Assembly: GCA_013286205.1 (NCBI GenBank) | Contig: JABDGD010000011.1 | Span: 90-64,089 of the forward strand | DNA from: Candidatus Firestoneibacteriota bacterium | GTDB lineage: Bacteria; Oederibacteriota; Muellerivitia; Muellerivitales; Muellerivitaceae | Reading direction: 5' to 3' | Length of the DNA: 64,000 bases | The notes under the pieces: model-generated | What the model was told of the DNA's origin: nothing | What the model saw: the letters and a program-made list of their open reading frames with translations, nothing else | Database searches by the model: none | Position numbers and translations under genes: made by a program | Shown here: positions 26,236-57,574 of the stretch, piece after piece | Layout of the letters: each line of letters opens with the position of its first letter | Position numbering within the stretch: position 1 is the first letter of the stretch

Positions 26236-26688
26236 TTATTGAATGCCGGTATGCCCAAAACCACCGCCGCCACGCGCCGTATCATCCAGACTATCAACTT
26301 GATCGATTTGAGCGTGAGCTACTGGTGAAATAAGAAGCTGGGCGATCCGGTCGCCGCGTTTGAGAACAACCGGCTCCTGGCCCAGATTAATTAAAAGAAC
26401 TTTAACCTCACCGCGGTAATCCGAATCGATCGTGCCGGGTGTATTGGCTACAGTCAGCCCCTGTTTCATTGCCAACCCGCTGCGGGGTCTGATGCCGCCT
26501 TCAAAACCAACCGGGATCGCCATTTTCAAACCTGTCGGCACCAGACCCCGTTCTCCGGGTTTTAAAGTAAAGGGTTCGGTTAACGCCGCCCGAAGATCTA
26601 ACCCCGCCGCGCCATCCGTGGCATAGGCCGGCAGGCCCAGATCATTGTTGCCCGGCAAAACTTCAATTTTCAAAGTCGGTTGTGTCAT
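26236..26688 (-). CDS. dut: dUTP diphosphatase
   Basis: Motifs AGLDLRA, PRSGLA and GTIDSDYRGE, with a Gly-rich C-terminus. The ATG at 26688 overlaps the upstream stop (ATGA); the ORF track starts 6 nt earlier. Confidence 0.95.
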   Translation of the reverse strand: MTQPTLKIEVLPGNNDLGLPAYATDGAAGLDLRAALTEPFTLKPGERGLVPTGLKMAIPVGFEGGIRPRSGLAMKQGLTVANTPGTIDSDYRGEVKVLLINLGQEPVVLKRGDRIAQLLISPVAHAQIDQVDSLDDTARGGGGFGHTGIQ

Positions 26689-28268
26689 TTCCATCCCTCG
26701 GCGAAGGCCCGTCTGATTTTTTCTTTCATGTCAGTGAAAACTTCCGGTTCAAAACAGAAGAAAGGATACTCGCGAAAAGCTAAAACGTCCCTGGTTTCTT
26801 TAACCGCCTGAGCGTCTAAAACCCCTTGTTCGATCACGGATAAAATTTCCCCATAGCTGGCGTAAAGCTCACCGTTAATTTCTTTAATGCGTTTAGCCGC
26901 CTGAGGCCGTTTCGCGGGATCCTTCAGCGAATTCACCGCCTCTTTCTTTTCATCAGCCAGCTTTCTCAAATTCTCATTTTGAAGACACTTTTCAAAAGAA
27001 CTATGCATGAAAGATGGTACGTCTCTTTTCCAATCCGCCTCGCGGGTAAAAAGATATTCGGGATTTTGTTCCAAGGCTCTGGCCCACAAACCCAAAATCC
27101 TCTCGTGATTCACGATCACGTCCAGTCCTTCACTCTCTTTGGAGTCGACCAGATAGGTTGCCGAGACAATTCCGTAAGCCGGAGGATCAATCTGGGTCGT
27201 TTTTTTAAAGAACAAGTCGACAACTTGTTCGTATACCCCGCCGCCAATGCCGTGAATAAAGAAGTCGCACAAATACATACGGCAAAAGAGGGTTTGAGGA
27301 ATGGCTTTGGGCCAGATTTTCAAAGGTGAGGCGCCTAATTGGGTTTTCAAATCATCCAAAAGAAAATCATGATGCCCCTCAACCCCTTTTACCTTGAGCG
27401 TCACTTTCTTGCCGTCTGTTTTGGCCCAGATGGTATCCCGATGGTGGCTTTTGGCGCTTCCCCAAAAAGGCGTCTCGAAATACCAATCCTCAAACTTCAG
27501 ATTGGGCACCGGTTCAATTTCGTGGGTAATGCCGTTAGTTTTGCGGTATTCATTGAGCGCCTCGTTGTACTGTTCTCCCAGTTCGGTCATGTGGCTCAGC
27601 CAATAAGTCACGAAGTTTAGAAAAGGCTCAGACGCCCAAAGCTGGCTGCCCACCAAAGTGGTTCTTTTAGTGCCGTCGATTTGATCCAATAGATCCAGCG
27701 AATGGCAGTGAAACTGATCCCAGCTGGTATTTACCTTCAGGCCTTTGATCAACTTGTCCTCAAAATATTTCACCGACTTGTGAGCCGAGGCGGGACCAAA
27801 GGCCGCCAAATCGGACAAAATTTTCTTAAGCGCCCCTTCGTCGGGAGCGGGCATAAAAGCATAAGGTGTCGAGCGTTCTTTGGTCTTAGCGTCTTTAGAA
27901 ATAAAAAAATCAACCTCGCTGCGGCGGGCTTTTCCTTTTTCGTTAATTTCCGGAATGAAGTGGGTAAACTCGGGCGAAAGCGCCGTATCAGTTAATTTGT
28001 GATAGGCCACGCCGGATACGGATAAGGCCAGCTGGCTGGCGGCGAGGCACTTGGCCCAGATACCGGGATAAAAGAAAACCGGCTGATGACCCGTTAAAAC
28101 AATCGGGCAATCAGTCGGCATTTTGAAGTGCTCGCGGACTTTAGAAGCCTTTTGGCCCCACAACGGAATGTTAAAGAATTTTTCTCTATTTCGCAGGACA
28201 GCGTTACGCCATTGGGTGGGTTCGGGCTCAAAGTAAAACTCGCCGTGATGTTTGGGTGTCTTTTCCAT
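26685..28268 (-). CDS. conserved-looking hypothetical protein, 527 aa (remote BshC-like pattern, unverified)
   Basis: Soluble protein. The segments IVLTGHQPVFFYPGIWAKCLAASQLA and FFIHGIGGGVYEQV recall, from memory, the GGQQ...LY and AGPGE regions of bacillithiol synthase BshC. No confident assignment is made. Confidence 0.6.
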   Translation of the reverse strand: MEKTPKHHGEFYFEPEPTQWRNAVLRNREKFFNIPLWGQKASKVREHFKMPTDCPIVLTGHQPVFFYPGIWAKCLAASQLALSVSGVAYHKLTDTALSPEFTHFIPEINEKGKARRSEVDFFISKDAKTKERSTPYAFMPAPDEGALKKILSDLAAFGPASAHKSVKYFEDKLIKGLKVNTSWDQFHCHSLDLLDQIDGTKRTTLVGSQLWASEPFLNFVTYWLSHMTELGEQYNEALNEYRKTNGITHEIEPVPNLKFEDWYFETPFWGSAKSHHRDTIWAKTDGKKVTLKVKGVEGHHDFLLDDLKTQLGASPLKIWPKAIPQTLFCRMYLCDFFIHGIGGGVYEQVVDLFFKKTTQIDPPAYGIVSATYLVDSKESEGLDVIVNHERILGLWARALEQNPEYLFTREADWKRDVPSFMHSSFEKCLQNENLRKLADEKKEAVNSLKDPAKRPQAAKRIKEINGELYASYGEILSVIEQGVLDAQAVKETRDVLAFREYPFFCFEPEVFTDMKEKIRRAFAEGWK

Positions 28269-28291: not shown

Positions 28292-29005
28292 TCACTGACG
28301 GGTCGAAGAAAGTCCTAAAGTTTTAGCTTCCCTCTCCAAAACCTCTAAATAGTGGGTTAGGCGCTCGTCGCGGTTGGCGAATTGATTGTTAAAGTTGCGG
28401 CTGTAATCTTTGTAGATCAAAGGCACAGCGCACTCGTTAACCGTCAAACCCGCTTTCGCCGCTTGAAGCCAAAATTGAATAGGAAAACCATAATTAGTCT
28501 CGGTTAAATTCAGCTTACGCAAACCATCCACACGGTAGCCTTTAAACCCGCAGAAACTATCAGTCAGGTTGTAAGGTGTGATTTCACGGAGCTTATCCGT
28601 AATGATCTTATTCACTTCCAGCCTTTCGGGAGGCGGAACATCTTTGGAGAGCAGGTGGTCTAAATAACGGCTTCCCGAAACAATATCAAAACGGGAAAGT
28701 TTGTCGAGAAAACAGGGGATGAAGCTGGGCTCATGCTGTTCATCCGCGTCCATGGTGACGCAATATTCGTAGTTATGATTTTTAACGTAATTAAACCCAT
28801 CCATCAGCGACTGGCCATAACCTTTGTTTTGATCGTGCCGGAGAATAGCGTGAACTTTGATGCGTTCTAAAACCGAGGGAGTCGCGTCCGTTGAGCCGTC
28901 ATCCACCACCACCACATCGGCGTCTTTAAACTCAGCTAAACGGTTGACGACCTTTTCGAGGGTGGGAGCTTCGTTATAAACGGGCAAAATAATGGCAAAT
29001 TTCAT
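28292..29005 (-). CDS. GT2 glycosyltransferase, polyprenyl-phosphate sugar synthase-like (DPM1/Ppm1/DPG-synthase type, soluble form)
   Basis: 237 aa. Motifs: MKFAIILPVYNEA, VVVDDGSTDAT and MDADEQHEP (DXD region). The size and motifs match short DPM1-like GT2 enzymes. Confidence 0.75.
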   Translation of the reverse strand: MKFAIILPVYNEAPTLEKVVNRLAEFKDADVVVVDDGSTDATPSVLERIKVHAILRHDQNKGYGQSLMDGFNYVKNHNYEYCVTMDADEQHEPSFIPCFLDKLSRFDIVSGSRYLDHLLSKDVPPPERLEVNKIITDKLREITPYNLTDSFCGFKGYRVDGLRKLNLTETNYGFPIQFWLQAAKAGLTVNECAVPLIYKDYSRNFNNQFANRDERLTHYLEVLEREAKTLGLSSTRQ

Positions 29006-29104: not shown

Positions 29105-30472
29105 TTATTTAGGAAGTCTTGGAACGTTGGATTGCGACGGCGTGGGTGTTGGAGCGTCGCCTACCGCCACCAAACCAGAAGGCGCTGGAGCCGCGGCGGA
29201 GGAAGAAGCCGCTGGCGCGGCGTTGTTACTTGTATCGACAGGAGCCACTCCCACCGACTGATTCGCGGGGGCAGCCGCGCCCACATCTATCGGCGCCACA
29301 CCTACGGGTTGCTCCACTTGAGCCGTCGGCTGAGCGGCAGGAGCGCCACCTACAGCGGTGGGAACTGGTACTGACGCGCTGGGATTGGAGTCCCAGGGAT
29401 TGGGAGGATTGCCATTATCCGCCGGCATCGCCAAGCTCGGATCGGGCGTGGGAGTGGACTGCTGCATGGCCGCATCTTTCATCTTCTTTTCCATTTCCAG
29501 CTGATCGATTTGCTTCTTGGACAAAAGAGGTTTACGGATGGTCTTAATGTGTTCCGCCGCCTCAAGATCTTTAGGATTAATTTCAGCGTATTTCTGCCAG
29601 TGGTACAAAGCCAAACCATATTGCTCGTCGCGTTCAAAAATCATGGCCAGCGCCTTATGCGCTTTAGCCTGCTGGTTATCTATATTGAGAATCATTAAGT
29701 AAAGACGCTTGGCGTTATTCCAATCCCGGATATCCACATAGTGCTCAGCCAAACGGTACTGGGCCGCGATGTTGGTCGGCGCTAAATCGGCGGAATATTT
29801 AAACTGCTCCACCGCTTTCTTCTCGTCGCCCAAGGCCAAATAAGACTCACCCAGCTTACCGCGGGCGGTCGCGTCCAGCGAATCCACATCCAAAGCTTGC
29901 CGGTAGTAGGCGACAGCTTCCTCGTGGCGGGCTTGGGCTTGATAAACATCGCCCAATTTTTCATAGACCGGCGCTTTGTCTTTATAACCGCGAATCGCCA
30001 TCTTTAATTCGGATACGGAGTTGGGATATTGCCTCAGACCCAAATAAGCCACACCCAAATTAAAATGCGCGGAGCCCGATTCCGGATCAATCTGAATGGC
30101 TTTTTTGGCGTAGAGAATCGCCTGGTTATAAATCCGCTTTTGGAGATAGAGGTAAGACTTGTTGTTGAGCGCGGGAACATAATTGGGCTGAACTTCTAAA
30201 ACTTTATCAAACTGCTCCATAGCCTCGTCAATGAGATTGCTTTTAGCGTACAGCTCGCCCAGGTTATTACGGGCCTGAACGTTGTAAGGATTTCTCTCGA
30301 TGGCTTCCCGGTAATACTTGATGGCGGTTTGGGACTTGCCTTCTTTAACGTAAAGATTGCCCTTGTCTAAATAATATTGATGGTCTGGCGACGAATCATC
30401 CGCCAAAAGTAACGAAGGGGTAACAGAACCCAGGGCCAAGAGACAGATCAACAAACGGGCTCGAAAAGACAT
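29105..30472 (-). CDS. secreted TPR-repeat protein with an Ala/Pro-rich low-complexity C-terminus
   Basis: Carries the signal peptide MSFRARLLICLLALGSVTPSLLLA. It has about 8 TPR-like units (for example AIKYYREAIERNPYNVQARNNLG). The tail reads ...GVAPIDVGAAAPANQSVGVAPVDTS.... Confidence 0.8.
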   Translation of the reverse strand: MSFRARLLICLLALGSVTPSLLLADDSSPDHQYYLDKGNLYVKEGKSQTAIKYYREAIERNPYNVQARNNLGELYAKSNLIDEAMEQFDKVLEVQPNYVPALNNKSYLYLQKRIYNQAILYAKKAIQIDPESGSAHFNLGVAYLGLRQYPNSVSELKMAIRGYKDKAPVYEKLGDVYQAQARHEEAVAYYRQALDVDSLDATARGKLGESYLALGDEKKAVEQFKYSADLAPTNIAAQYRLAEHYVDIRDWNNAKRLYLMILNIDNQQAKAHKALAMIFERDEQYGLALYHWQKYAEINPKDLEAAEHIKTIRKPLLSKKQIDQLEMEKKMKDAAMQQSTPTPDPSLAMPADNGNPPNPWDSNPSASVPVPTAVGGAPAAQPTAQVEQPVGVAPIDVGAAAPANQSVGVAPVDTSNNAAPAASSSAAAPAPSGLVAVGDAPTPTPSQSNVPRLPK

Positions 30473-30585: not shown

Positions 30586-31980
30586 TTAAAGCTTCGCTAA
30601 AGAGCGCGCGGCGGTCAAAAGACGCTGTAGTTCTTTGGGTGAGGGGCCTTCGGCATAAAGCCGCAGCAACGGCTCCGTACCCGAGGGACGCACCAAAAGC
30701 CAGCCTTGTTCCAGCTTCAACTTAACACCATCCAGCGTTTGAACCCCTGTCACCTTATGCCCGGCGATATGAGACGGCGGAGATTTTTTTAAACGGTTGA
30801 GAATGGCGTTCTGTCGGTCAAAAGGAACATTTTCCAGATCAATGCGGTCAGAATAAAAGGGCCCAAATTCTTTTTGAAGAAAACCGACCGCTTCCGTCAC
30901 TGATTTTTTCATGGTGACGAGAGCTTCCAATAAAAGCAGTCCGGACAAAAGGCCGTCTCTTTCAGGCAGGTGGCCCTTAATCGCGATACCGCCGCTTTCC
31001 TCGATGCCCAACAGCACATCTTCTTTAAGCATCACCCCGCCGATATATTTAAATCCAATCGGCGTTTCAAACAGAGGTATTCCCCACCGCTCGGCCATCC
31101 GTTGAATCATCAAGGTTCCTGAGACCGTCTTCACTACCGCGCCCCGCATACCCCGGTTGACCCAAAGGTGATAAAGCATCAGGGCATGGAGTTTGTGCAC
31201 ATCCACATATTTTCCTTTTTCGTCCACCATACCGATACGATCGCCGTCCCCATCCGTAGCGAAACCCACATCCGCCTTCCACACTTTCATTGCTTTAAAA
31301 AGCGGGCCCAGGTTCGCGCCGATCGGTTCGGGCTGACGGCCGCCAAAAAATATGTCACGGTTGCCCGCCACGGTTTTAGCCTTGGTTTTGGAACCGGAGA
31401 TGAGATTTTCAAAGTGGTTTTCGCCGACGCCGTGCATAGAGTCAATCGCCACCTTTAAACCGGCCTGGCGGATGGCTTTTAAATTCACTTTGGCCGAAAC
31501 CGCTTTTAAATAAAACGAAAGCCAATCTTTCTGTTCAATTTTATGGTCGGCGCCGGCTTCCGGCTCCTCGGACGGGATATTCTTTTCGACTAACTGGGTA
31601 AAAGAAGAAGGCGCGGACACACCCGGCGGAAGCTTAATTTTAAAACCGTTATAGTGGCCCGAATTATGGCTGGCCGTAATCATCACACCCGCGTCGGCCT
31701 TTTGGGCCTTAACCGCCAGGGACAAAGCGGGCGTGGGAAGTATTTTAGACGACAGAGTGACACGGTGCCCCAGCGAGGCCAATACCTGGGCCGCCGCCTG
31801 GGCATATTGATCGGAATAAAAGCGGGTGTCATAGCCCACAAAAATCTTAGCGTGTTTTTTCTTCCGGCGCAGGGCCAGACCTAATCCGTAAGCCGCCCGG
31901 CGCACGTTTGGAAAGTTAAACGTGGTCGTAATTTTTGAGCGCCAACCGTCAGTCCCAAAATGAATATCTGTCATTTTCAA
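30586..31980 (-). CDS. phosphomannomutase/phosphoglucomutase (alpha-D-phosphohexomutase family)
   Basis: Carries the active-site loop TASHNSGHYNGFK, the metal loop ATDGDGDR and the sugar loop GIEESGG. Its start overlaps the stop of paralogue 1 by 4 nt. Confidence 0.9.
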   Translation of the reverse strand: MKMTDIHFGTDGWRSKITTTFNFPNVRRAAYGLGLALRRKKKHAKIFVGYDTRFYSDQYAQAAAQVLASLGHRVTLSSKILPTPALSLAVKAQKADAGVMITASHNSGHYNGFKIKLPPGVSAPSSFTQLVEKNIPSEEPEAGADHKIEQKDWLSFYLKAVSAKVNLKAIRQAGLKVAIDSMHGVGENHFENLISGSKTKAKTVAGNRDIFFGGRQPEPIGANLGPLFKAMKVWKADVGFATDGDGDRIGMVDEKGKYVDVHKLHALMLYHLWVNRGMRGAVVKTVSGTLMIQRMAERWGIPLFETPIGFKYIGGVMLKEDVLLGIEESGGIAIKGHLPERDGLLSGLLLLEALVTMKKSVTEAVGFLQKEFGPFYSDRIDLENVPFDRQNAILNRLKKSPPSHIAGHKVTGVQTLDGVKLKLEQGWLLVRPSGTEPLLRLYAEGPSPKELQRLLTAARSLAKL

Positions 31981-33692
31981 TTGCCGTTTTCCCTTTTGAG
32001 TTTTAAATCAAAAACATTGTTTCCCAAATGATGGTCCAAAATCCATTGGGCGACTATTTTTTGATAATCAGGCTGATCAATCCCCCGCAGATTCCATCCG
32101 GGCGGGCCCGAAGTATAGTAGCCATTCAGAGTGGGAACGCCGGAAACAATCGCGACAAGCATCGCTCCGGTTTGACATTCACCTCTGTCCGCAAAGTAAC
32201 TATCCCCGGGAGTTCCTGAGATGTAAAAAGCGGTCGCGTCCTTAGGAATCATCTTGGCCAGTCTCATCGTATCATTTCGGGCATCGGTTACAGAAATAAC
32301 GCCACAGGGGCTCCCCCCCATTTGCTCAAACCATATTCCAGACAAAACCACTCCCATCAGCATCGCGGCGCCTATTTTTTTAACCGGCTCTTTAATCGCG
32401 GAAAAACACTCAATCCACCGCTGAACTTCAAAAGCGAAAATCATGCTCACCGGCAGCATCAAAACCACGCCAAATCTCGAAGTGCACAATACCGCTTTGC
32501 CGCCCGGCACCCAATTGTAAATCCACTGCCATAATATCGGCTGGCCATGACGTTTCAGAATCAACACCACGCAAAACCAAACACTTAAAATAACCAGTGT
32601 TTCAAAAACACTCTGACCCTGAGCTTTCGAATCCTTTCCAAAAGGAAACGCCGGCGCTTTTCCATGAGTCAAATTCGGAATATTTCTAACGGCCTTAACC
32701 GTCACCCATAGCCAAAACAAACTAAATAACAACCCCAAGCCCAATCGGTTTTCCCACTCACAGTCCATATTCGCGAAGCTATTAAAATGAGAAAGCCAAC
32801 CCCAAACATAATTTTTATCACTCATCCACATGAGCGCTTTCAAAGTAGGCATATTATTAATCACATCAGGCAAAGGCCTCGGGCCCTTCAGGTGCAATAC
32901 AGGCAGGTATAAAGCGAGAAACGGAATTAATCCGACCACTAAAATAAAAAGAGCCGCCAAATAGTTAAACCTCGACGGCGGAAAGACCGCCTTCCATGAT
33001 CTGCTAAAAAAATCTTTGTGCTCAAATATCAGAAACATAAAAATTAGCGCGATTCCCCAAATAGCCAAAAACCAGCCCATATAAAACGAAGTCAAAAGTT
33101 GAACATCGATTAAAACAGCCGCCAGCCAAAGGATTTTTATCTTTTCAGAAGTTTGGCTTGAGCGACGAATGAACAAAACGAAACACAAAAGAATGATCGG
33201 TAAAAAATAAAGCGCCTGAAAATCATAGTGTTCCAGTTGATTGTATTTAACGCTGTTAAACGTGAAAAAGGCTGCCCCAATTGAGGAGGGGAACGTCGTT
33301 AAATTGAACCCCTTTTTCAAAAACCAAAAGCAGGCCAAAAAATTCAAAATATTAAAAACAAGAACAGTGGCCAGAGTCGCGTTATACATATCCAGGTGCA
33401 ATAATCGAAACGAGCAATAAATCGGAGCCGCGCCCGCCATGGCATCGCAATACCCCAGAACGCCTTTGGTGGGATAAAAGATGGGTGGAGAAACAACGCT
33501 GGTGTGGCCCAACAACGCTTGAAAATAATTCTCGAATTGGAAAATGTGCTGCTGAGGATCGGTAGGGCCCTGCATCAGAGTGAATTTTGACATCACTTCA
33601 TAGTGATGAAATGTCCAAAAACCCCAGGCAAAAGGAATAAAGGCTAAAAAATAAATAAGAATTCGATTCTTATTTAAAGAAGATTGAGGCAT
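31977..33692 (-). CDS. polytopic membrane protein, tandem paralogue 1 of 3 (GT-C-like glycosyltransferase candidate; family not recognised)
   Basis: 571 aa with about 12 hydrophobic segments and a ~110-aa C-terminal soluble domain. The first external loop carries FYPTKGVLGYCDAMAG. It aligns end to end with the two genes upstream. Confidence 0.85.
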   Translation of the reverse strand: MPQSSLNKNRILIYFLAFIPFAWGFWTFHHYEVMSKFTLMQGPTDPQQHIFQFENYFQALLGHTSVVSPPIFYPTKGVLGYCDAMAGAAPIYCSFRLLHLDMYNATLATVLVFNILNFLACFWFLKKGFNLTTFPSSIGAAFFTFNSVKYNQLEHYDFQALYFLPIILLCFVLFIRRSSQTSEKIKILWLAAVLIDVQLLTSFYMGWFLAIWGIALIFMFLIFEHKDFFSRSWKAVFPPSRFNYLAALFILVVGLIPFLALYLPVLHLKGPRPLPDVINNMPTLKALMWMSDKNYVWGWLSHFNSFANMDCEWENRLGLGLLFSLFWLWVTVKAVRNIPNLTHGKAPAFPFGKDSKAQGQSVFETLVILSVWFCVVLILKRHGQPILWQWIYNWVPGGKAVLCTSRFGVVLMLPVSMIFAFEVQRWIECFSAIKEPVKKIGAAMLMGVVLSGIWFEQMGGSPCGVISVTDARNDTMRLAKMIPKDATAFYISGTPGDSYFADRGECQTGAMLVAIVSGVPTLNGYYTSGPPGWNLRGIDQPDYQKIVAQWILDHHLGNNVFDLKLKRENGN

Positions 33693-33706
33693 TTAAAAAC
33701 CATTCC

Positions 33707-35407
33707 TTAATAAAGATCGCCTTTTTTAAGTTCCAAATCAAAAACACGATCTCCCAATTGGTGATCCGTTATCCACTTCAATACTCTTTTATGGTAATCG
33801 GGGTGTTCTAAACCCTCAAGATTCCATCCCGGCGGAGCCGAAGAATTGTAACCATTCAGAGTGGGCACCCCAGAAACCGCCGCTATCAGCATGGCGTCAA
33901 TTTGATTAATATAACACCCGGGCATCTCAGAAACATAAAACGCGGTCGCGTTTGCGGGTATTCGGGCGGCCAACTTCAATATTTTCGCGCGATCCGCCGG
34001 GACTGAGAAAATACCGACCGGAGTCCCCCCCATTTGTTCAAACCACACTCCCGATAAAACCACACCGATCAACATCATGGCGCCTATTTTTTTAGCGGGT
34101 TCTTTTATCGCCGGAACACGAAGAATGAACCGCTGAACTTCAAAGGCAAAAATCATGCTCACTGGCAGCATCAAAACAATAGCGAACCTCGAAGTACAAA
34201 GTATGGCATTGCAGCCTGGCACCCAATAGTAAATCCATTGCCATAACAACGGCTGATAATGGCGTTTCAGAATCAAAATCAAACAAAACCAAACACTCAG
34301 AATAACCAGCGTTTCAAAAACACTTTGGCCCCGCGTTTCCGCGTTTTTTTCAAAGGGAAATGCCGGCGCCTTATTCCCTATCAAGTTTCGAATATTGCGA
34401 ATGGCTTTAACGGTGACAAATAACCAAAAAAGGCTAAATAACAATCCCAAACCCAGCCGGTTTTCCCACTGGCAGTCCATGTCCCTTATTTTTTCAAACT
34501 GAGAAAGCCAGCCCCAAACATAATTTCCATCACCCATCCACAGAAGCGCTTTGAAGGTCGGCATGTTGTGAACCACATCGGACAAAAGTCTCGGACCCTT
34601 CAGTTGAAGCACGGGCAAATACAAAGCAAAAAACGGAATAAAAGCCGCGACGAAAATGATACCAGCGGCCCAATAATAGGAACTTGGCGGCGGCGGCAAT
34701 TTTTTCAGTGATTTTTTAAAAAAAGTTTTCCATCTGAAAATCAAAAACATTAATCCCAGCACTATGCTCCAAATCCCAAAAAACCAGCCCATATAAAACG
34801 AGGTTAAAAATTGGGCGCCGATTAAAACAGCGGCCAGCCAAAGAACCCTTATCTTTCCCGGCGATTCATTCGAGCGGCGGATGAATAAGATGAAACACAA
34901 AACAATAACTGGTAAAAAATAAAGCGCCTGAAAATCATAGTGTTCTAATTGATTGTATTTGATGCTATTAAACGTGAAAAAAGCCGCCCCAATCGACGAG
35001 GGGAAAACTTTTAGATTGAACCCTTTTTTCAAAAGCAAAAAACAGGCTAAAAAATTCAAAATATCAAAAACAATTACCGCGGCCTGAGTCGCGTTATACA
35101 TATCCAGGTGCAATAACCGAAAGGAACAATAAATTGGGGCCGCACCGGCCATGGCATCGCAATATCCCAATACGCCTTTGGCTGGATAAAAATAAGGGGG
35201 GGAAACGACACTAGTGCGGCCCAGCAATGCCTGGAAATAGTTTTCGAACTGACTGATGTGAAAACGCGGGTCAGTGTCGCACTGCATCACATCAAAGCCC
35301 GATTGCAATTCAAAATGGTGGAATGTCCAAAAGCCCCAGGCAAAAGGAACGAAGCTTAAAAGGACGAGAAGAGCACAATTTATTTTTTTCGTAGCTGATG
35401 GCGTCAT
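33707..35407 (-). CDS. polytopic membrane protein, tandem paralogue 2 of 3 (GT-C-like candidate)
   Basis: 566 aa. It has the same architecture and shares long identical blocks with the other two copies (NQLEHYDFQALYFLP, CQWENRLGLGLLFSLFW, VLMLPVSMIFAFEVQR). Confidence 0.85.
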   Translation of the reverse strand: MTPSATKKINCALLVLLSFVPFAWGFWTFHHFELQSGFDVMQCDTDPRFHISQFENYFQALLGRTSVVSPPYFYPAKGVLGYCDAMAGAAPIYCSFRLLHLDMYNATQAAVIVFDILNFLACFLLLKKGFNLKVFPSSIGAAFFTFNSIKYNQLEHYDFQALYFLPVIVLCFILFIRRSNESPGKIRVLWLAAVLIGAQFLTSFYMGWFFGIWSIVLGLMFLIFRWKTFFKKSLKKLPPPPSSYYWAAGIIFVAAFIPFFALYLPVLQLKGPRLLSDVVHNMPTFKALLWMGDGNYVWGWLSQFEKIRDMDCQWENRLGLGLLFSLFWLFVTVKAIRNIRNLIGNKAPAFPFEKNAETRGQSVFETLVILSVWFCLILILKRHYQPLLWQWIYYWVPGCNAILCTSRFAIVLMLPVSMIFAFEVQRFILRVPAIKEPAKKIGAMMLIGVVLSGVWFEQMGGTPVGIFSVPADRAKILKLAARIPANATAFYVSEMPGCYINQIDAMLIAAVSGVPTLNGYNSSAPPGWNLEGLEHPDYHKRVLKWITDHQLGDRVFDLELKKGDLY

Positions 35408-35437
35408 TAAAACCTACTAAAGATTCTGATGTATTTT

Positions 35438-37141
35438 TTATTCACCATCATCCTCTTTAATATTTAAATCAAAAACATTGGTGCCCAAATGGTGGTCAGA
35501 GATCCATTTGTTCACTCTTTCGTGATAGTCCGGGTGAGCCAAACCGTCCAAATTCCATCCCGGCGGTCCGGAAGTATAGTAACCATTCAGGGTGGGAACA
35601 CCTGAGATAGACGCTATCAGCATGGCATCAATTTGATTAAGTCCATAGCCATCGTCCCGTCCCGAGAGATAAAAAGCCGTCGCGTCTTTTGGAACCCGGG
35701 CGGCCAGCTTTACCATTTTAGCGCGATCCTTCGAAACTGAAAAAACCCCGACCGGAGTATCAGCCATTTGTTCAACCCACACTCCGGATAAAAGCACTCC
35801 CATCAACATCATGGCACCTGTTTTTTTAGCGGGTTCTTTCATGTCCGAAACACGGAGAATAAAACGCTGAACCTCAAAAGCAAAAATCATGCTCACCGGC
35901 AGCATCAAGACCACGCCAAACCGGGAAGTGCACAACACCGCCTTACAACCTGGCAGCCAATAGTAAATCCATTGCCATAACAACGGCTGATAGTGGCGTT
36001 TCAAAATTAAGATCAAACAAAACCAAACACTCAATATAACCAGCGTTTCAAAAATGCTTTGCTTCTGTATTTCTGAGTTTTTTTCAAAGGGGAACGCTGG
36101 CGCCCTTTTCCGGGCCAAGTTCGGGATATTTCTAACAGCTTTAATGGTTACCCATAGCCAAAACAAACTAAATAACAGTCCCAACCCCAGCCGGTTTTCC
36201 CACTGGCAGTCCATGTTGCTCATTTTTTTAAACTGAGCGAGCCAGCCCCAAACATAATTCCCTTCGCCCATCCACATGAGCGCTTTAAAGGTAGGCATGT
36301 TGTCGACCACATCCGACAAAAGTCTTGGGCCCTTCAGATGTAATACCGGCAGGTACAAAGCAAAAAACGGAATCATTCCCACCGCTAAAATAAAAAGTGC
36401 CACTCCATAGTTAAATCTCGACGAGGGAAATAGCCTCTTCCATGATCCGCTGAAAAAATATTGACGCTCGAATAACAGAAACATAAAAATCAGAACAATG
36501 CTCCAAATAGCCAAAAACCAACCCATGTAAAACGAAGTTAAAAATTGAATGTCGATTAAAACAGCGGCCAGCCAAAGAATTTTTATTTTTCCGGGGGTTT
36601 CACTTGGGCGGCGGATAAATAAAACAAAACACAAAAGAATCATCGGCAGAAAATAGAGCGCCTGAAAATCGTAATGTTCGAGCTGGTTGTATTTGATGCT
36701 GTTAAACGCGAAAAAGGCCGCCCCTATGGACGAGGGGAAGACTTTCAGGCCAAACCCTTTTTTCAAAAGCCAAAAACAAGCCAGAAAATTCAAAATATCA
36801 AAAACGATCACAGCGACTTGGGTCGCGTTATACATGTCCAAATTCAAAAATCTGAAAGAACAATAAATCGGAGACACGCCCGCCATCGCGTCGCAGTAGC
36901 CCAGCACGCCTTTCGTGGGATAGAAGATGGGCGGCGAAACAACGCTGGTATGCCCCAGTAACGCTTGAAAATAGTTTTCAAATTGAAAAATGTGCTGCCG
37001 CGGATCGGTTTTGCCCTGCATCACATCAAGACGTGATTCCAATTCAAAATGATGAAAGGTCCAAAAACCCCAGACAAAGGGTATGAAAGCTAAAAGAAGG
37101 ATAAAAAAGTTGTGCCTTTTATTTAAAGAAAAGCGGGACAT
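35438..37141 (-). CDS. polytopic membrane protein, tandem paralogue 3 of 3 (GT-C-like candidate)
   Basis: 567 aa. About 83% of a ~205-residue N-terminal stretch is identical to paralogue 2 by my manual count. It has the same motif set. Confidence 0.85.
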   Translation of the reverse strand: MSRFSLNKRHNFFILLLAFIPFVWGFWTFHHFELESRLDVMQGKTDPRQHIFQFENYFQALLGHTSVVSPPIFYPTKGVLGYCDAMAGVSPIYCSFRFLNLDMYNATQVAVIVFDILNFLACFWLLKKGFGLKVFPSSIGAAFFAFNSIKYNQLEHYDFQALYFLPMILLCFVLFIRRPSETPGKIKILWLAAVLIDIQFLTSFYMGWFLAIWSIVLIFMFLLFERQYFFSGSWKRLFPSSRFNYGVALFILAVGMIPFFALYLPVLHLKGPRLLSDVVDNMPTFKALMWMGEGNYVWGWLAQFKKMSNMDCQWENRLGLGLLFSLFWLWVTIKAVRNIPNLARKRAPAFPFEKNSEIQKQSIFETLVILSVWFCLILILKRHYQPLLWQWIYYWLPGCKAVLCTSRFGVVLMLPVSMIFAFEVQRFILRVSDMKEPAKKTGAMMLMGVLLSGVWVEQMADTPVGVFSVSKDRAKMVKLAARVPKDATAFYLSGRDDGYGLNQIDAMLIASISGVPTLNGYYTSGPPGWNLDGLAHPDYHERVNKWISDHHLGTNVFDLNIKEDDGE

Positions 37142-37183
37142 TTAAAACCTCGGCAGATGATTTGAAATACAAAAACTGCGACG

Positions 37184-38257
37184 TTATTTCTTCAAACCAG
37201 CTTTCAGTTGATCAATGAGACCGATTGAGGTGGGGTTCAGCCCCTTCAAAAAGGCTAAATAGACTGAAACAAAATCCCCGAGATAAACCATCCACAGGGT
37301 CTGAGACAAAAGAGAGTTTCCTTCAGCCCAAACCTCACTCACCTGGTTTTTCTTGAGCCCGGATATTTTTTTAAAAATGGCGAACCGCTTTTGAACACGG
37401 TCGTTTTCATACTTTTCGCTTCTGAGCAGAAGTACGGCAGCATTCTTCACAAATGAATCCTGAACTGTATAGGACAAGATTTCATTGTGATTCATTTCGG
37501 GTATGGCGTTGACATGCGCCATTTGTTTCGCGTTTTCATTAAACTGGCATTTCCAACGATAAGCGGTTGTGCCCAGGCAATTCTCACTGGCGTAAATCAC
37601 AGGGTTTTTGCCGTGAAAAAATAAAGCTAACTGTTTCGCCAAGTTCTTTTTGGAATCATTAAACAAATTAAACTCAAACATCGTCTTTTCCAACAAAAGG
37701 ACGGCTTCTTCAATTTCTCCATCCATTGAAGGCAGCAGTTTCGCGCTTTCCAGCATGGTTAGCAGAGTGATCACGGAATAATTCAGCGTCGTACGGGGTT
37801 GAACACCCCCCGGCATTTCGTAATAGGGCAATTTGTGTTTTCGCGCTTCTTTTAAAAGCGTCCCACCCGAGCTGATCACGACTATATTCAGCTTTCTGGC
37901 CAGAGCCTGTTTAAAAGCGGATAAGGTTTCTTCGGTATCACCCGAATGGCTGGAGCAAATCACCAGGGTTTGACGGTCAACCCAGGCAGGCAAAGCATAG
38001 TCCCGGTTCACGTAAACGGGAATTTTCAAAACCGATCTTAAGTAATTGGCGACCATTTCCCCGCCGATGGCTGACCCACCCACGCCGCAAATGACCAATG
38101 AATCAATTTTGGAGGAATTCAGTTTTATTTTATTGAGAAGAGCCTGGTGGCGGGCATCCCGGCATTGCTGGGGCACCGTTTCCACCAAATGGAGCATATG
38201 TTGGGGATCGAGCTTATAAATTTGATCGGGATTATCCAGAGTATGTTTTTTCATCAA
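37184..38257 (-). CDS. bifunctional phosphoglucose/phosphomannose isomerase (SIS-domain PGI/PMI family)
   Basis: 357 aa with two SIS-like halves. Motifs: ICGVGGSAIGG and the SIS motif SSHSGDTEET. The size and layout match the archaeal-type PGI/PMI. Confidence 0.8.
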   Translation of the reverse strand: MMKKHTLDNPDQIYKLDPQHMLHLVETVPQQCRDARHQALLNKIKLNSSKIDSLVICGVGGSAIGGEMVANYLRSVLKIPVYVNRDYALPAWVDRQTLVICSSHSGDTEETLSAFKQALARKLNIVVISSGGTLLKEARKHKLPYYEMPGGVQPRTTLNYSVITLLTMLESAKLLPSMDGEIEEAVLLLEKTMFEFNLFNDSKKNLAKQLALFFHGKNPVIYASENCLGTTAYRWKCQFNENAKQMAHVNAIPEMNHNEILSYTVQDSFVKNAAVLLLRSEKYENDRVQKRFAIFKKISGLKKNQVSEVWAEGNSLLSQTLWMVYLGDFVSVYLAFLKGLNPTSIGLIDQLKAGLKK

Positions 38258-38356: not shown

Positions 38357-38668
38357 TTAAAACTTAATCCAAACAACCCCATCTTCAACCACAGTAGGAA
38401 AAGTATTGAGCTTCATATCCGGTTCTTCCAGACATTCACCCGTTTTAATATTCGACCGGTAACCATGAGCTTTACAGATGATCAGATCGCCCGCGGTATT
38501 CCGCGGATCAAGTCTCACTTCGGCATGAGGACAGTAAACGCCGGTCGCGTAAACCATTTCGCCGCGACGGTGCAGCATGACCGCCATATTCTCCACTTCC
38601 ATCTCAACGCTTTTGTTGTCGATGAGTTGGTTGAAAAGAGCGGCTTTTTTAAATCCCGGCTGATCCAT
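38357..38668 (-). CDS. Rieske [2Fe-2S] ferredoxin-like protein (NirD-type small Rieske)
   Basis: Carries the Rieske ligand pattern CPH-x16-CKAH (VYCPHAEVRLDPRNTAGDLIICKAHG). The start was chosen at the Met of MDQPGF (38668) so that it does not overlap the upstream gene; the ORF track runs to 38704. Confidence 0.75.
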   Translation of the reverse strand: MDQPGFKKAALFNQLIDNKSVEMEVENMAVMLHRRGEMVYATGVYCPHAEVRLDPRNTAGDLIICKAHGYRSNIKTGECLEEPDMKLNTFPTVVEDGVVWIKF

Positions 38669-38675
38669 AAAACCT

Positions 38676-39710
38676 CTAGAGACTGTTGTTGTCGCCCAAA
38701 ACACTGCCCTTATCCAAAGGCTTTTTCACTTTGCAGCGGCGGCCCAGCACCACTTCATCTAAATGAATATCCGCCGCCACCGAGACTCCATCCCATAACA
38801 GGCTTTTCGAAACTGAACTGCCCGGGCCCAGCTTGCACTTTTTACCCAAGACAGAATAAGGAAGCACTTTGGCTCCCTTGGCGATAACACACCCATCCTC
38901 CAGAATGGCCGGCCCTTGAATCACAGCGCCCTTGGCCACCTTCACCCCTTTTCCCAAATAAACCTTTTTCGAATTTCGCTTCAATTTAGCGTAAACCGGA
39001 AAAGCCCCTCGGAGCACATCCCAATGGGTCGTCAAATATTTATAAGGCGTCCCAATGTCCTGCCAGTAGCCTTCGCTCACAAAACCGCCCATGGGCCGCT
39101 TCGCTTTTAAAATATCGGGGAACACCACCCGTTCCACTGAGCAAGGAACCACATCAGGAATAAAATCGAAAACCTCGGGTTCAAACACATAAACCCCGGC
39201 GTTAATGGTGTCGGTCACCACTTTATCCGGCGAGGGTTTTTCTAAAAATTGAGTAACACGATTTTGATGGTTCAGTAAAACCAAACCGTACATCGTCGGA
39301 TCTTCGGCGTGAACCAATCCCAATGTGACCAAATTCTTATGCTTGCGGTGAAACCGGATCATCTGGGTTAAAGACAAGGCCGTCAAAATATCACCGTTCA
39401 ACACTACCACCGGTGAGCCCTTGACGAACTTCTCACAGTTCTTGATGGCCCCCGCGGTTCCCAAAGGTGTTTTTTCCAGGGCATAGTGAATCTTCACCCC
39501 GTGCTTGCGGCCATCGCCGTAAACTTTTTTGATGTCCTGGGGCCGATAACCGATTGAAAAGACAATTTCTTTAATGCCCGCGCTTTTGAGATATTCAATT
39601 TGGTAGGTCAAAAAAGGAACGCCGCAAAGAGGCACGATGTTTTTGGGAAGGCGGTTGGTCAGGGGCCGCATACGGGTTCCCTGTCCGCCTACGAGGATAA
39701 TGGCTTTCAT
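38676..39710 (-). CDS. sugar-1-phosphate nucleotidyltransferase with C-terminal left-handed beta-helix (mannose-1-phosphate guanylyltransferase-like)
   Basis: Carries the N-terminus MKAIILVGGQGTRMRPLTNRLPKN and a C-terminal hexapeptide-repeat region. The context (PMI, PMM, gmd, fcl) favours GDP-mannose synthesis. Confidence 0.8.
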   Translation of the reverse strand: MKAIILVGGQGTRMRPLTNRLPKNIVPLCGVPFLTYQIEYLKSAGIKEIVFSIGYRPQDIKKVYGDGRKHGVKIHYALEKTPLGTAGAIKNCEKFVKGSPVVVLNGDILTALSLTQMIRFHRKHKNLVTLGLVHAEDPTMYGLVLLNHQNRVTQFLEKPSPDKVVTDTINAGVYVFEPEVFDFIPDVVPCSVERVVFPDILKAKRPMGGFVSEGYWQDIGTPYKYLTTHWDVLRGAFPVYAKLKRNSKKVYLGKGVKVAKGAVIQGPAILEDGCVIAKGAKVLPYSVLGKKCKLGPGSSVSKSLLWDGVSVAADIHLDEVVLGRRCKVKKPLDKGSVLGDNNSL

Positions 39711-39723
39711 AACGTTTCCTTAG

Positions 39724-40644
39724 TTATCGAGGCTTTCGATAATACTCGACAGTTTCCTTCAACCCCGCCTTCAAATCATAGCTGGGTTCCCATTTTAAAA
39801 GCTGCTGGGCCTTAGCGCTGTTTAAAACGCTTCGGTGCAAGTCGCCTAAACGCGGCACAATGCGCAGGGCTTGTTTGGAATAGCCGGTCAAAGAAGCCAG
39901 CGTATCAAACAATTGATTCGTTGTGGTTTCCTGGCCCGTACCAATATTGAAAGCATCGTTTTTCGGGTAGCTCAGGGCCAGCAAATTGGCCTTCGCCACA
40001 TCTTTCACGTAAACATAATCACGGACATTAAACCCGTCGCCGAAAATTTGAAGTTCCGCTCCATGCAGCATCCCATGGGTAAAAATGGCCACCACACCGC
40101 CTTCCCCTAAAGCATCCTGCCGGGGACCGTAAACGTTGGCATAGCGAAGAACCACATATTCCATCCCAAAGTTTTGGGAAAAAACATCGGCATAGCTTTC
40201 CACCGTCATCTTGCTGGCGCCATAAACCGAGAAGGGTCTGGGCTTTTGTTCTTCCGTAAAGGGTTTGTCCGCAGCCTCGCCATACATGGCGCCGCCCGAA
40301 GAGGCGTAAATAAACTTATGAACGCCGGAGCGGCGGCAAAGGTCCAGCAAAAGTACCGAACCCAAAACATTCACCTTCACATCAAAGTAAGGATCTTCCA
40401 GAGAGGCTTTGACCTTAATTTGCGCGGCGTGATGATTAACCACCTGAATCTTTTCATCCTGAAGAACTTGCTGAACTTTATCGTCCAGAATATCCATTTG
40501 ATAGAACTTGGCTTTGGGGTTGAGATTTTCTTTTTTGCCTGTGGAAAGATCATCAACGATAACCACTTCATGACCCGCTTCAAGATAGGTGTCCACCACA
40601 TGGCTGCCGATAAAGCCGGCGCCGCCGGTCACAAGTATTTTCAC
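39724..40644 (-). CDS. NAD-dependent nucleotide-sugar epimerase/dehydratase (GalE family, SDR)
   Basis: Carries the Rossmann motif VTGGAGFIGSH and the catalytic YGASK. It uses a GTG start. Confidence 0.88.
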   Translation of the reverse strand: MKILVTGGAGFIGSHVVDTYLEAGHEVVIVDDLSTGKKENLNPKAKFYQMDILDDKVQQVLQDEKIQVVNHHAAQIKVKASLEDPYFDVKVNVLGSVLLLDLCRRSGVHKFIYASSGGAMYGEAADKPFTEEQKPRPFSVYGASKMTVESYADVFSQNFGMEYVVLRYANVYGPRQDALGEGGVVAIFTHGMLHGAELQIFGDGFNVRDYVYVKDVAKANLLALSYPKNDAFNIGTGQETTTNQLFDTLASLTGYSKQALRIVPRLGDLHRSVLNSAKAQQLLKWEPSYDLKAGLKETVEYYRKPR

Positions 40645-40663
40645 AAATTCGTCCTTTTAGACA

Positions 40664-42058: not shown

Positions 42059-42142
42059 AACACCTCAAGTTCAAATCAAATCGAAGTCTAGTTTATACGC
42101 CCGGGCCAAACCCAGTAAATATCTACTTAACTATAGTTAAAA

Positions 42143-57569: not shown

Positions 57570-57574
57570 TGAAA

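Follow-up and report, generated by a model that had tools for sequence, protein, structure and literature searches.

Three adjacent genes in a 64,000-nucleotide (nt) stretch of contig JABDGD010000011.1 from Candidatus Firestoneibacteriota bacterium (the window; positions 90 to 64,089 of the contig) encode similar polytopic membrane proteins of 567, 566, and 571 amino acids (aa), which we call copies A, B, and C from upstream to downstream. Given their position among genes for sugar activation, we wondered which reaction these proteins carry out, and whether the three copies share a single task or have taken on separate ones. The original prediction, made from the letters of the window, had proposed that they are periplasmic transferases of the glycosyltransferase (GT) fold class GT-C that draw on polyprenyl-phosphate-mannose and differ in acceptor or linkage. 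Our analysis leads to a reading of the same kind. The best explanation of the triplet, and on balance the probable one, is a set of paralogous GT-C-fold enzymes that would transfer a lipid-phosphate-borne sugar, probably mannose, to different acceptors in the periplasm. The fold, the sidedness, and the logic of such systems are established biology; the family to which the three proteins belong is large, unnamed, and uncharacterized.

A predicted GT-C fold with a conserved periplasmic face

Scans of the three copies against Pfam and NCBIfam gave no match at E ≤ 1, and searches of the PDB sequences with phmmer and with 10- and 70-sequence profiles returned noise (nanobodies) or nothing. The class assignment comes from predicted structures. 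An AlphaFold model built on a 10-sequence alignment reached a pLDDT of 79 and a pTM of 0.84, and one built on 70 sequences a pLDDT of 93.1 and a pTM of 0.93, with the same layout of secondary structure. When both models were compared with the PDB by Foldseek, the top 22 matches were all GT-C enzymes (probability 0.92-1.0, E 1e-6 to 1e-2), and more than 15 structures were matched at a probability of 1.0. The TM-scores against GT-C structures rose to 0.54 and mostly lay between 0.3 and 0.5. Among these matches were STT3 (E ~1e-6, TM-score 0.50-0.54), PglB, AglB, DPY19, ArnT, AftA, AftD, and Pmt1, followed by PimE, ALG3, ALG6, and ALG9, whereas transporters and GPCRs came up at a probability of ≤0.3 and TM-scores of 0.1-0.24, on which grounds a transporter fold was rejected. 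Members of the GT-C_B type (RodA and WaaL) were absent from the matches of either model. The GT-C-like character suspected originally is thus borne out, since only GT-C structures in the PDB match both models.

The model contains 11 transmembrane (TM) helices, rather than the roughly 12 hydrophobic segments counted in the original prediction, with the N terminus inside, and this fits the GT-C_A layout (7-13+ TM helices). Under this topology, lysine and arginine account for 13 of the 57 residues in cytoplasmic segments (23%) and for 24 of the 266 in periplasmic ones (9%). Because of the N-in, 11-TM layout and this charge bias, the long first loop (residues 36-102, with helices at 46-61 and 90-98) and the C-terminal α/β domain (residues 460-567, about 110 aa) are both placed outside the membrane on the periplasmic side. 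The model thereby shows a predicted periplasmic position for the first loop, with D46, E55, and D84, and for the C-terminal domain, as in all solved GT-C enzymes, which agrees with the location supposed earlier for the conserved acidic loop.

Across 100 diverse members of the family and the three copies, six residues never vary: D46, E55, Y205, R407, E457, and N519. D46 (100 of 100 members) is kept in the distant subfamily as well. Near-invariant positions include H56, F73, P75, Y82, R97, H156, W208, Y263, E315, R403, Q458, and D505, to which the C-terminal domain adds a PTxNG motif (516-520), P526, and W529, and the stretch FYP-x4-LGYCDAMAG, which had been singled out as invariant, is indeed present in copies A, B, and C. 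D46 lies about 11 residues past TM1, at the start of the first loop helix, and the catalytic acid of solved GT-C enzymes sits just after TM1, as summarized in PMC11127046. The conserved residues cluster on the periplasmic face. Taken together, the models make it very likely that the three proteins are GT-C-fold enzymes acting at that face.

A profile-profile alignment with a PMT_2/ArnT-like profile, for which the 763-aa PMT_2 protein of the window served as the starting point, gave a probability of 74.5% (E 2.7e-5) over 117 columns spanning TM2-TM6, the catalytic loop lying outside. Sub-threshold matches to YfhO and PMT_2 occur in several members on the TM5-TM7 region. With YfhO (PF09586, gathering score 28.5 bits), distant members score 14-16.8 bits (E 0.002-0.017) and the window proteins give no match; with PMT_2 (PF13231), the window proteins have no match at E ≤ 1, and a single one of 70 members has one, at E = 0.0099 and below the gathering score. 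At the level of sequence profiles, the similarity to PMT_2 indicates distant relatedness and not membership.

A large family that associates with lipid-phosphate-sugar machinery

When 1.84 billion cluster representatives were searched exhaustively with a HMMER profile, 8,738 sequences came up at E ≤ 1e-3, of which 5,593 reached E ≤ 1e-10 and 2,504 reached E ≤ 1e-30; the best 150 matches listed are nearly all single and full length. By this count the family is large and widespread, which overturned the picture of a tiny family given by the 10 matches of a word-indexed search of 5.8 billion proteins. Members span Proteobacteria, Acidobacteria, Myxococcota, Gemmatimonadota, Bdellovibrionota, and candidate phyla. 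Their public names read "hypothetical protein", but one carries the automatic UniRef label "RgtA/B/C/D-like domain". No Pfam domain covers the ~550-aa core in any of 70 diverse members or in any of 10 more distant ones. The suggestion that the family might be undescribed therefore holds for the curated libraries (no match in Pfam, in NCBIfam, or among PDB sequences), but the family is large and not rare. Relatives carry accessory C-terminal modules (DUF4214, Ig-like, DUF7024, and CBM_4_9), and one of the 70 members is a GtrA fusion. Among the loci of relatives, which we number with an L, DUF7024 (PF22895) was seen as a C-terminal periplasmic module in L006, L027, and L031 (strongest in L031, E 2.5e-26); it may be an acceptor- or carbohydrate-binding domain.

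Among more distant members (22-33% identity), a gene for a GtrB-type GT2 with two C-terminal TM helices directly adjoins or overlaps the family gene in L006, L008, L011, L016, L026, and L027. In L026 (Paraburkholderia eburnea), the GT2, GtrA (a separate gene), and GT-C genes stand in a row. L006 (9416-11959) and L008 (9431-11596) have a GtrA domain fused to the N terminus of the GT-C protein, the former with DUF7024 at its C terminus as well; the GtrB-type GT2 gene starts 1 nt after the L006 gene, and it precedes and overlaps the L008 gene. Judged by its domains, each of these two loci holds a full three-component system encoded by just two genes. DPM1/GtrB-like GT2 genes of shorter length are found up to ~5 kb from the family gene in L004, L005, L021, L033, L035, L038, and the window, and L031 has a further GT2 gene 155 nt downstream. 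On a Sphingomonadaceae plasmid (L032; CP099620.1, 5523-10521), the family gene overlaps a PAP2 phosphatase gene by 4 nt, to which it is translationally coupled, and a UbiA-family prenyltransferase lies 1 kb away, in an arrangement that is similar on CP099622.1 and CP099616.1. UbiA and PAP2 beside the family gene correspond to the gene set of the polyprenyl-phosphoribose pathway (PMC11127046), which suggests a plasmid-borne polyprenyl-phosphate-pentofuranose glycosylation system using the GT-C family. A distant member on a deltaproteobacterial plasmid belongs to a cluster with the phosphomannomutase CpsG, glycosyltransferases, and an ABC transporter. In all, such a partner was found in about 14 of about 40 loci, many of the contigs being too short to show one. 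The association with sugar activation that had been read from the window thus recurs elsewhere, both in these neighbors and fusions and in the synteny with relatives of the FCPU426 type described below.

An old and lineage-specific triplication

Copies A and B are separated by 30 nt and copies B and C by 14 nt, and the mutase gene that follows (30586-31980) shares 4 nt with copy C. Lengths, gaps, overlap, and alignability over the full length are as originally described, according to the open reading frames (ORFs), the coordinates, and our alignment. Amino acid identity over the full-length alignment is 74.9% for A-B, 74.4% for A-C, and 69.9% for B-C, and nucleotide identity 73-76%; the best 205-column window of the A-B alignment reaches 82.9%, in keeping with an earlier hand count of about 83% over ~205 aa for these two copies. 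Each start codon has a purine-rich element upstream, within a shared GGTTTT(T)AA-ATG junction. A scan for promoters and terminators found promoter-like sites not in excess, and its terminator-like matches sit in T-rich membrane-protein coding sequence. From the junctions and the promoter scan we infer that the triplet is probably co-transcribed as a single operon.

The synonymous divergence (dS) between the paralogues is 1.15-1.24, near saturation, with a ratio of nonsynonymous to synonymous divergence (dN/dS) of 0.13-0.16 (A-B: dS 1.17, dN/dS 0.13). The 567/566/571 triplet was found, with order and context unchanged, on contigs of three other metagenome samples. One of these, a 12.5-kb contig (L001), carries an orthologue of each copy that is 94.5-95.4% identical (94.5% for copy B), with a dN/dS of 0.07-0.17. 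Because dS is near saturation, dN/dS is low, and the triplet recurs in other samples, the triplication is old and all of its copies have been kept by selection, as the original prediction had held of its age; purifying selection acts on all three copies. An assembly duplicate is excluded by a dS of ~1.2 and by the recurrence of the triplet in four samples, and recent gene conversion among the copies by the lack of any window with near-zero synonymous difference (pS). Diversifying selection at a resolution of 30 codons was not seen either: no window exceeded a pN/pS of 0.5, so the diversifying loops that had been considered did not appear.

In a neighbor-joining tree, the six A, B, and C genes of the window and L001 form one clade with 100% bootstrap support, as does each orthologue pair (100%), and this clade is nested within a larger one of the FCPU426 type that also holds L004, L005, and P0004 (100%). 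As to which duplication came first, the bootstrap values are split 59 to 41. The closest reference relatives are L004, a metagenome-assembled genome of candidate division FCPU426, and L005, from an uncultured bacterium. Both share with the window a block of GT4, phosphotransferase, epimerase, nucleotidyltransferase, GT-C, (mutase), TPR, GT2, the 527-aa protein, dUTPase, and periplasmic binding protein genes, with a single GT-C gene each (9878-11683 in L004, 9986-11689 in L005). The shared block places the organism of the window in or near that lineage. The GT-C gene is 39-41% identical to its counterparts in L004/L005, compared with 47-77% for the syntenic neighbors, and is thus evolving much faster than the genes around it. 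Some 40 other independent loci (23 from reference genomes, 12 from metagenomes, several from other look-ups) are all single-copy. The tandem triplication is therefore lineage-specific.

Over window positions 32001-38000 the GC content dips to 0.43-0.44 (0.47-0.50 in the flanks) and the plus-strand AT skew rises to +0.19. Both fit minus-strand coding for membrane proteins rich in Phe, Leu, and Ile, and not a foreign origin. Horizontal acquisition of the array was rejected accordingly: the composition is that of hydrophobic coding, and the gene is syntenic and monophyletic with its single-copy relatives. No homologue was found in the phage collection searched, so that a mobile seroconversion cassette is unsupported.

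Near-identical donor side, divergent C-terminal domain

The paralogues do not differ evenly along their length. Three-way identity is 93% in external loop EL2 (149-163, which holds H156), 76% in EL1, and 52-87% in the TM helices, and falls to 46% in the C-terminal domain (460-567), 29% in loop 225-241, and 20% in the N-terminal tail. Loop 225-241 is the single most variable internal loop and is cytoplasmic in the predicted topology. Copy C alone has a small FADRG insertion and the changes R48Q and D505G at near-invariant positions. These region-wise identities agree with the earlier impression that differences gather in the N terminus, some loops, and the C-terminal domain, with a small insertion in one copy. 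Since the donor-side loops are near-identical and divergence lies mainly in the C-terminal domain, the pattern is that of a conserved donor and catalytic face coupled to a relaxed or divergent C-terminal domain, and it would fit one donor and different acceptor sites.

Genes around the triplet

The triplet belongs to a polysaccharide or lipopolysaccharide (LPS) cluster that extends over more than 30 kb of the window, all on the minus strand (Table 1). In order, the cluster comprises a DegT aminotransferase, GT2s, a GT9 heptosyltransferase, a GT87-like GT-C protein, Wzy_C, GT4s, an FkbM methyltransferase, Gmd, and Fcl; then a GT4, a WcaJ-type phosphoglycosyltransferase, a GalE-like epimerase, a ManC-like nucleotidyltransferase, a Rieske protein, a bifunctional phosphoglucose/phosphomannose isomerase (PGI/PMI), and the triplet; and, after the triplet, a mutase of the PGM/PMM family, a secreted TPR protein, a 237-aa GT2, a 527-aa protein, and a dUTPase. 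A scan of the window for tRNA genes found none.

Table 1. Coordinates of the triplet and of other features of the window mentioned in the text
Feature	Positions	Strand	Basis or remark
Copy A, 567 aa	35438-37141	minus	Predicted GT-C-fold membrane glycosyltransferase of an unclassified family; predicted models, Foldseek, invariant residues kept
Copy B, 566 aa	33707-35407	minus	Paralogue of copy A with 74.9% aa identity; invariant residues kept
Copy C, 571 aa	31977-33692	minus	Most diverged paralogue; insertion of 4-5 aa in the C-terminal domain; R48Q, D505G
Phosphohexomutase (PGM/PMM/GlmM family)	30586-31980	minus	Four PGM_PMM Pfam domains
Secreted TPR protein	29105-30472	minus	TPR Pfam families; hydrophobic segment at residues 5-25
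237-aa GT2 without TM helices, candidate polyprenyl-phosphate-sugar synthase (DPM1/PpgS type)	28292-29005	minus	Pfam Glycos_transf_2
527-aa soluble protein	26685-28268	minus	Directly after the DPM1-like GT2; syntenic in L004/L005, 48-50% identity
776-aa periplasmic binding protein	23785-26115		Ser/Thr/Pro-rich linker
Bifunctional PGI/PMI	37184-38257	minus	Pfam bact-PGI_C and SIS; sugar supply
Small Rieske [2Fe-2S] protein	38357-38704	minus	Pfam Rieske; present in L001
Sugar-1-phosphate nucleotidyltransferase, ManC-like, with LbH tail	38676-39710	minus	Pfam NTP_transferase
GalE-like epimerase, WcaJ-type polyprenyl glycosylphosphotransferase, GT4	39724-43255	minus	Pfam and NCBIfam; syntenic in L001/L004/L005, 69-77%
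113-aa ORF	43306-43647	minus	Between GT4 and Fcl
394-aa GT87-like protein	52528-53712	minus	GT-C type
627-aa polytopic membrane protein	55713-57596	minus	At least 10 hydrophobic segments
763-aa PMT_2/ArnT-like protein	9674-11965	minus	GT-C type

The candidate supply genes named in the original prediction can be identified with profile hidden Markov models (HMMs), with varying precision. A PMI and a ManC-like gene upstream were recognized as the PGI/PMI, which passes the cut-off of NCBIfam NF006426 (341.9 bits against 295), and as the nucleotidyltransferase, whose best NCBIfam match, man1P_GTase_Rv, scores 285.8 bits, below the cut-off of 440; GMPPB_C was found on its L001 orthologue, and it is syntenic in L004/L005 at 62-63% identity. 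The adjacent phosphomannomutase is of the PGM/PMM family, as claimed, but stays below the cut-off of every sugar-specific model, its best NCBIfam match being the archaeal GlmM type (296 bits, below the cut-off of 439); it is syntenic in L004 at 68.5% identity. A DPM1/Ppm1-like GT2 had been noted 3 kb downstream, and the 237-aa GT2 indeed lies 2,972 nt downstream of the triplet, in the conserved syntenic block (76-77% identity to L004/L005), with best NCBIfam matches of the synthase type (PpgS, AglJ, Dol-P-hexose transferase, and ArnC), all far below their cut-offs. A GtrB-type HMM matches this GT2 alone among the four GT2 genes of the window, and is therefore reasonably specific. The PGI/PMI and Rieske genes stand between the nucleotidyltransferase and the array only where the triplication is present (the window and L001), and are absent from that place in L004/L005.

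The secreted TPR protein ends in 125 residues of low complexity rich in Pro, Ala, Ser, Thr, and Val and is syntenic in L004/L005 at 47-52% identity; its gene sits between the GT-C/mutase genes and the GT2 gene in FCPU426-type relatives too. Speculatively, it could be a partner, an acceptor, or an O-glycosylation substrate. The neighboring 776-aa periplasmic binding protein has a similar SPTPDPSVTPTP linker, rich in Ser, Thr, and Pro. The 527-aa protein, for which no match was found in Pfam, NCBIfam, or the PDB, may belong to the same module. Elsewhere in the window, a 763-aa PMT_2/ArnT-like gene and a 394-aa GT87-like gene are further genes of the GT-C type, so that together with the triplet at least five GT-C enzymes are encoded in 64 kb. 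Also in the cluster is a polytopic membrane protein of 627 aa whose C-terminal domain, of ~120 aa, is soluble. It matched nothing in Pfam, NCBIfam, or the PDB, nor the HMM of the triplet family (hhalign probability 0.2%), and may be a polymerase, a flippase, or one more unclassified GT-C enzyme. The 113-aa ORF encodes a zinc-ribbon-like CxxC...CxxC protein with a C-terminal TM helix and received no assignment.

Proposed function and competing explanations

How might these genes work together? In the pathway that we propose, the PGI/PMI, the mutase, and the ManC-like enzyme would produce GDP-mannose, and the DPM1/PpgS-like GT2 of 237 aa would load mannose onto polyprenyl phosphate. The mannose would then be flipped, and each of the three paralogues would attach it at its own position or to its own acceptor in an envelope glycan, for which the product of the surrounding cluster, a polysaccharide or LPS, is the likeliest candidate. 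Each enzyme would take the sugar from its polyprenyl-monophosphate carrier and transfer it at the periplasmic face, with D46, just past TM1, as the putative catalytic base and with R97, H156, Y205, and R407 possibly holding the lipid phosphate. Sugar and acceptors are inferred from the gene content, and the roles of these residues in catalysis by analogy with solved GT-C enzymes. The parts of this proposal differ in strength. That the donor is a polyprenyl-monophosphate sugar is likely. The case for mannose, which draws on the flanking PGI/PMI, mutase, ManC-like, and DPM1/PpgS-like GT2 sequences, stands evenly balanced; it is supported because the PGI/PMI scores above its cut-off and mannose-1-phosphate guanylyltransferase is the nearest match of the nucleotidyltransferase, and because the PGI/PMI has been inserted beside the array only in the lineage with the triplication and CpsG accompanies a distant member. 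A glycan acceptor is supported by the CBM_4_9, Ig-like, DUF4214, and DUF7024 modules of relatives and by the Wzy_C, GT9, GT4, Gmd, Fcl, and WcaJ-type genes of the cluster. That each copy modifies a position of its own on the polysaccharide of the cluster is possible, and we would rate it a little short of even.

Several observations weigh against this proposal. On the side of sugar supply, the mutase is best matched by an archaeal GlmM type, the nucleotidyltransferase and the GT2 stay below curated cut-offs, and the Gmd and Fcl of the cluster also use GDP-mannose, so that the supply genes need not serve the GT-C enzymes; nor was GtrA or another flippase found in the 64-kb window by jackhmmer or among the Pfam families listed in its census. 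On the side of the enzymes, the closest structures are those of oligosaccharyltransferases, whose donors are oligosaccharides linked to pyrophosphate, and the triplet lacks two near-invariant residues, H56 being replaced by N (as throughout the FCPU426-type subclade) and R403 by L (in the triplet only; K in L004 and L005). In addition, the signature of positive selection that acceptor diversification might leave was not seen in the 30-codon windows (pN/pS ≤ 0.5). As for the relatives, many homologues stand in unrelated contexts, e.g., beside uvrC in L003, and the loci that adjoin GtrB, GtrA, or UbiA genes belong to a distant subfamily (22-25% identity) without E55. Because those loci are distant, the transfer of the donor class to the triplet rests on conservation at the level of the family and on the DPM1-like GT2 3 kb away.

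The structural matches raise the possibility that the triplet instead transfers an undecaprenyl-pyrophosphate-linked oligosaccharide, made by the WcaJ-type and GT4 enzymes, en bloc to proteins or another acceptor, in the manner of an oligosaccharyltransferase (OST). STT3, PglB, and AglB are the top matches (E 1e-6 to 1e-4, TM-score ~0.5), ahead of ArnT and the Aft enzymes, the family has a conserved periplasmic C-terminal domain past the last TM helix with invariant residues (PTxNG, W529), and the GT-C gene is syntenic with phosphoglycosyltransferase and GT4 genes in L001, L004, and L005. However, the differences in TM-score among the GT-C_A classes are small, the GT66 hallmark WWDxG (WW[DE]xG) was found in 0 of 100 members and is missing from copies A, B, and C, no OST in the PDB is matched by sequence (E ≤ 10) and Pfam STT3 is not matched either, and members of the family are fused to GtrA or adjoin GtrB-type and UbiA-type synthases of monophosphate-linked sugars, all of which makes an OST-like reaction quite unlikely. 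With the same donor and mechanism as in our proposal, the three enzymes might otherwise be protein O-mannosyltransferases acting on Ser/Thr-rich periplasmic or surface proteins instead of a polysaccharide, in the manner of PMT, mycobacterial Pmt, and TMTC, each copy with its own protein substrates and with the secreted TPR protein as a substrate-binding partner or a substrate. The Pro/Ala/Ser/Thr-rich 125-aa tail of that protein and its synteny in L004/L005, the Ser/Thr/Pro-rich linker of the neighboring 776-aa protein, and the presence of Pmt1 among the structural matches speak for this, and TPR modules accompany several protein-directed GT-C enzymes (TMTC). Yet the Pmt1 match is partial (288 aligned columns, TM-score 0.30), Pfam PMT and PMT_2 are unmatched, the accessory modules of relatives are of a carbohydrate-binding type (CBM_4_9, Ig-like, DUF7024), and the TPR neighbor is confined to the FCPU426-type clade and absent from the flank census; we consider protein substrates unlikely.

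A further question is whether the three proteins act separately at all, since they could assemble into a single hetero-oligomer with one joint activity, for which EmbA-EmbB and Pmt1-Pmt2 provide the precedent. Order and lengths do not change across four samples, the genes are closely coupled (gaps of 30 and 14 nt, then a 4-nt overlap), and purifying selection is comparable on all copies, but every copy keeps the full set of invariant catalytic-site residues, none resembles a degenerate scaffold subunit, and about 40 other loci make do with one gene of the family, so that joint assembly seems decidedly improbable. The Wzy-type polysaccharide cluster around the triplet invites the thought of polymerases or ligases acting on pyrophosphate-linked repeat units, like those of clan GT-C3 (GT122-124). 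That clan is described as having a long loop near the N terminus and a conserved D, H, and two R residues (PMC10920833). By that description, the D46, H56/H156, R97, and R407 of the family are comparable. On the other hand, a Wzy_C protein is already present in the cluster, the structural matches are GT-C_A enzymes, relatives are fused to or adjoin GtrA, GtrB, and UbiA and in many cases stand apart from polysaccharide clusters, a tandem of three polymerases would be out of the ordinary, and the family has a conserved soluble C-terminal domain, which Wzy-type polymerases are not known to have; we find this very improbable. Finally, that the proteins are transporters or other polytopic proteins merely resembling the GT-C fold has nothing in its favor except the lack of a curated family assignment, and is close to negligible given the concentration of conserved residues on the periplasmic face and Foldseek probabilities of at most 0.3 for transporters as against 1.0 for the many GT-C structures. 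The fold, topology, and context elsewhere, by which the original prediction had proposed to be judged, have thus all been examined, and its interpretation of periplasmic lipid-phosphate-sugar transferases survives in each respect.

Comparison with known systems

In function, the triplet with its partners resembles periplasmic glycosylation systems of the Gtr, YfhO, or Emb type, but by motif and sequence it falls outside the curated families with which it was compared (GT66, PMT_2, YfhO, and Emb). The three-component framework of periplasmic glycosylation is reviewed in PMC11127046. Like the GtrA/GtrB/Gtr systems of Salmonella and Shigella and the CsbB-GtcA-YfhO systems of Firmicutes, relatives of the triplet stand beside a GtrB-type GT2 and beside, or fused to, GtrA. 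Unlike in those systems, the Pfam models for Gtr-type proteins and YfhO remain below threshold for the family, the GT2 of the window is soluble and 3 kb away, the window has no detectable GtrA, and there are three tandem GT-C genes instead of one. In mycobacteria, PpgS (Rv3631) with the GT-C enzyme Rv3779, and Ppm1 with PimE or Pmt, are cases in which a short soluble GT2 supplies a separate GT-C enzyme. The 237-aa GT2 has its best NCBIfam match in PpgS, and PimE is a structural match of the triplet; however, the PpgS score is 78 bits against an equivalog cut-off of 370, the window proteins are not GT87/PimE-like by sequence, and the organism of the window is apparently a diderm candidate-phylum bacterium with LPS-type genes.

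The original prediction had likened the array to embC-embA-embB, which also are three tandem GT-C paralogues under purifying selection, with a presumed common lipid-phosphate donor, different acceptors, and a C-terminal periplasmic domain in acceptor binding. The Emb family (Arabinose_trans) gave no match in a full Pfam scan of the triplet. Emb proteins have ~1,100 aa, 15 TM helices, and CBMs, as opposed to ~570 aa, 11 TM helices, and a 110-aa C-terminal domain in the window proteins, and the donor pathway differs, which limits the resemblance to the tandem-paralogue arrangement. The STT3/PglB/AglB enzymes (GT66) are the best structural matches (TM-score ~0.5) and share a TM core with a periplasmic C-terminal domain, but they have 13 TM helices as opposed to 11, and the family has neither WWDxG nor sequence similarity to them, while its genomic partners point to monophosphate-linked monosaccharide donors. 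ArnT and RgtA-D (GT83) are similar in that they modify LPS with undecaprenyl- or dodecaprenyl-phosphate sugars, ArnT being a structural match and the profile similarity extending over TM2-TM6. The founder of GT136, ORF12 of Citrobacter youngae O1, is reported to have 11 TM helices, the first followed closely by a catalytic Asp and by a small helical domain, the last by an extra periplasmic domain (PMC11127046). By this description its layout is similar, and the coupling of one relative to PAP2 and UbiA parallels the polyprenyl-phosphoribose synthase and 5'-phosphatase steps of its pathway. In contrast, its essential residues D31, E34, H106, and R349 do not fit the spacing of D46, E55, R97, H156, and R407, and it is served by a PRPP-dependent synthase and by a flippase of the MATE or SMR type, not by a GT2.

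What the family and its triplication may mean

We offer, with slightly more doubt than belief, the combined reading that the proteins found a new GT-C family at the level of CAZy and that the three-enzyme array into which it has expanded in the FCPU426-like lineage, together with the TPR and 527-aa proteins, is an undescribed periplasmic mannosylation module. The putative family would be recognized by D46...E55-H56 in loop 1, R97, H156, Y205-x2-W, R403-x3-R407, E457-Q, and a PTxNG...PxGW domain. It would be distinguished by flexible pairing with at least three kinds of synthase (GtrB-type GT2, soluble DPM1-type GT2, and UbiA with PAP2), and would stand apart from GT136, GT122-124, and the families covered by Pfam, in the case of GT136 and GT122-124 by description only; overlap with GT136 is the main threat to novelty at the family level. 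The triplet itself reveals neither a new mechanism nor a new kind of system.

Outside the cytoplasm, GT-C enzymes modify LPS, capsules, teichoic acids, cell-wall glycans, and proteins, and drive antigenic diversity, phage resistance, and antibiotic tolerance. With no curated name for the family, annotation at present overlooks a whole class of envelope-modifying enzymes, and a single characterized member would probably found a CAZy family and let thousands of "hypothetical proteins" be annotated. The triplet, lineage-specific and kept since an ancient duplication, is a neat instance of paralogue specialization in a candidate phylum and serves as a natural experiment on the evolution of acceptor specificity where the donor-binding scaffold stays fixed, and it offers a first glimpse of the envelope glycobiology of an uncultured candidate division.

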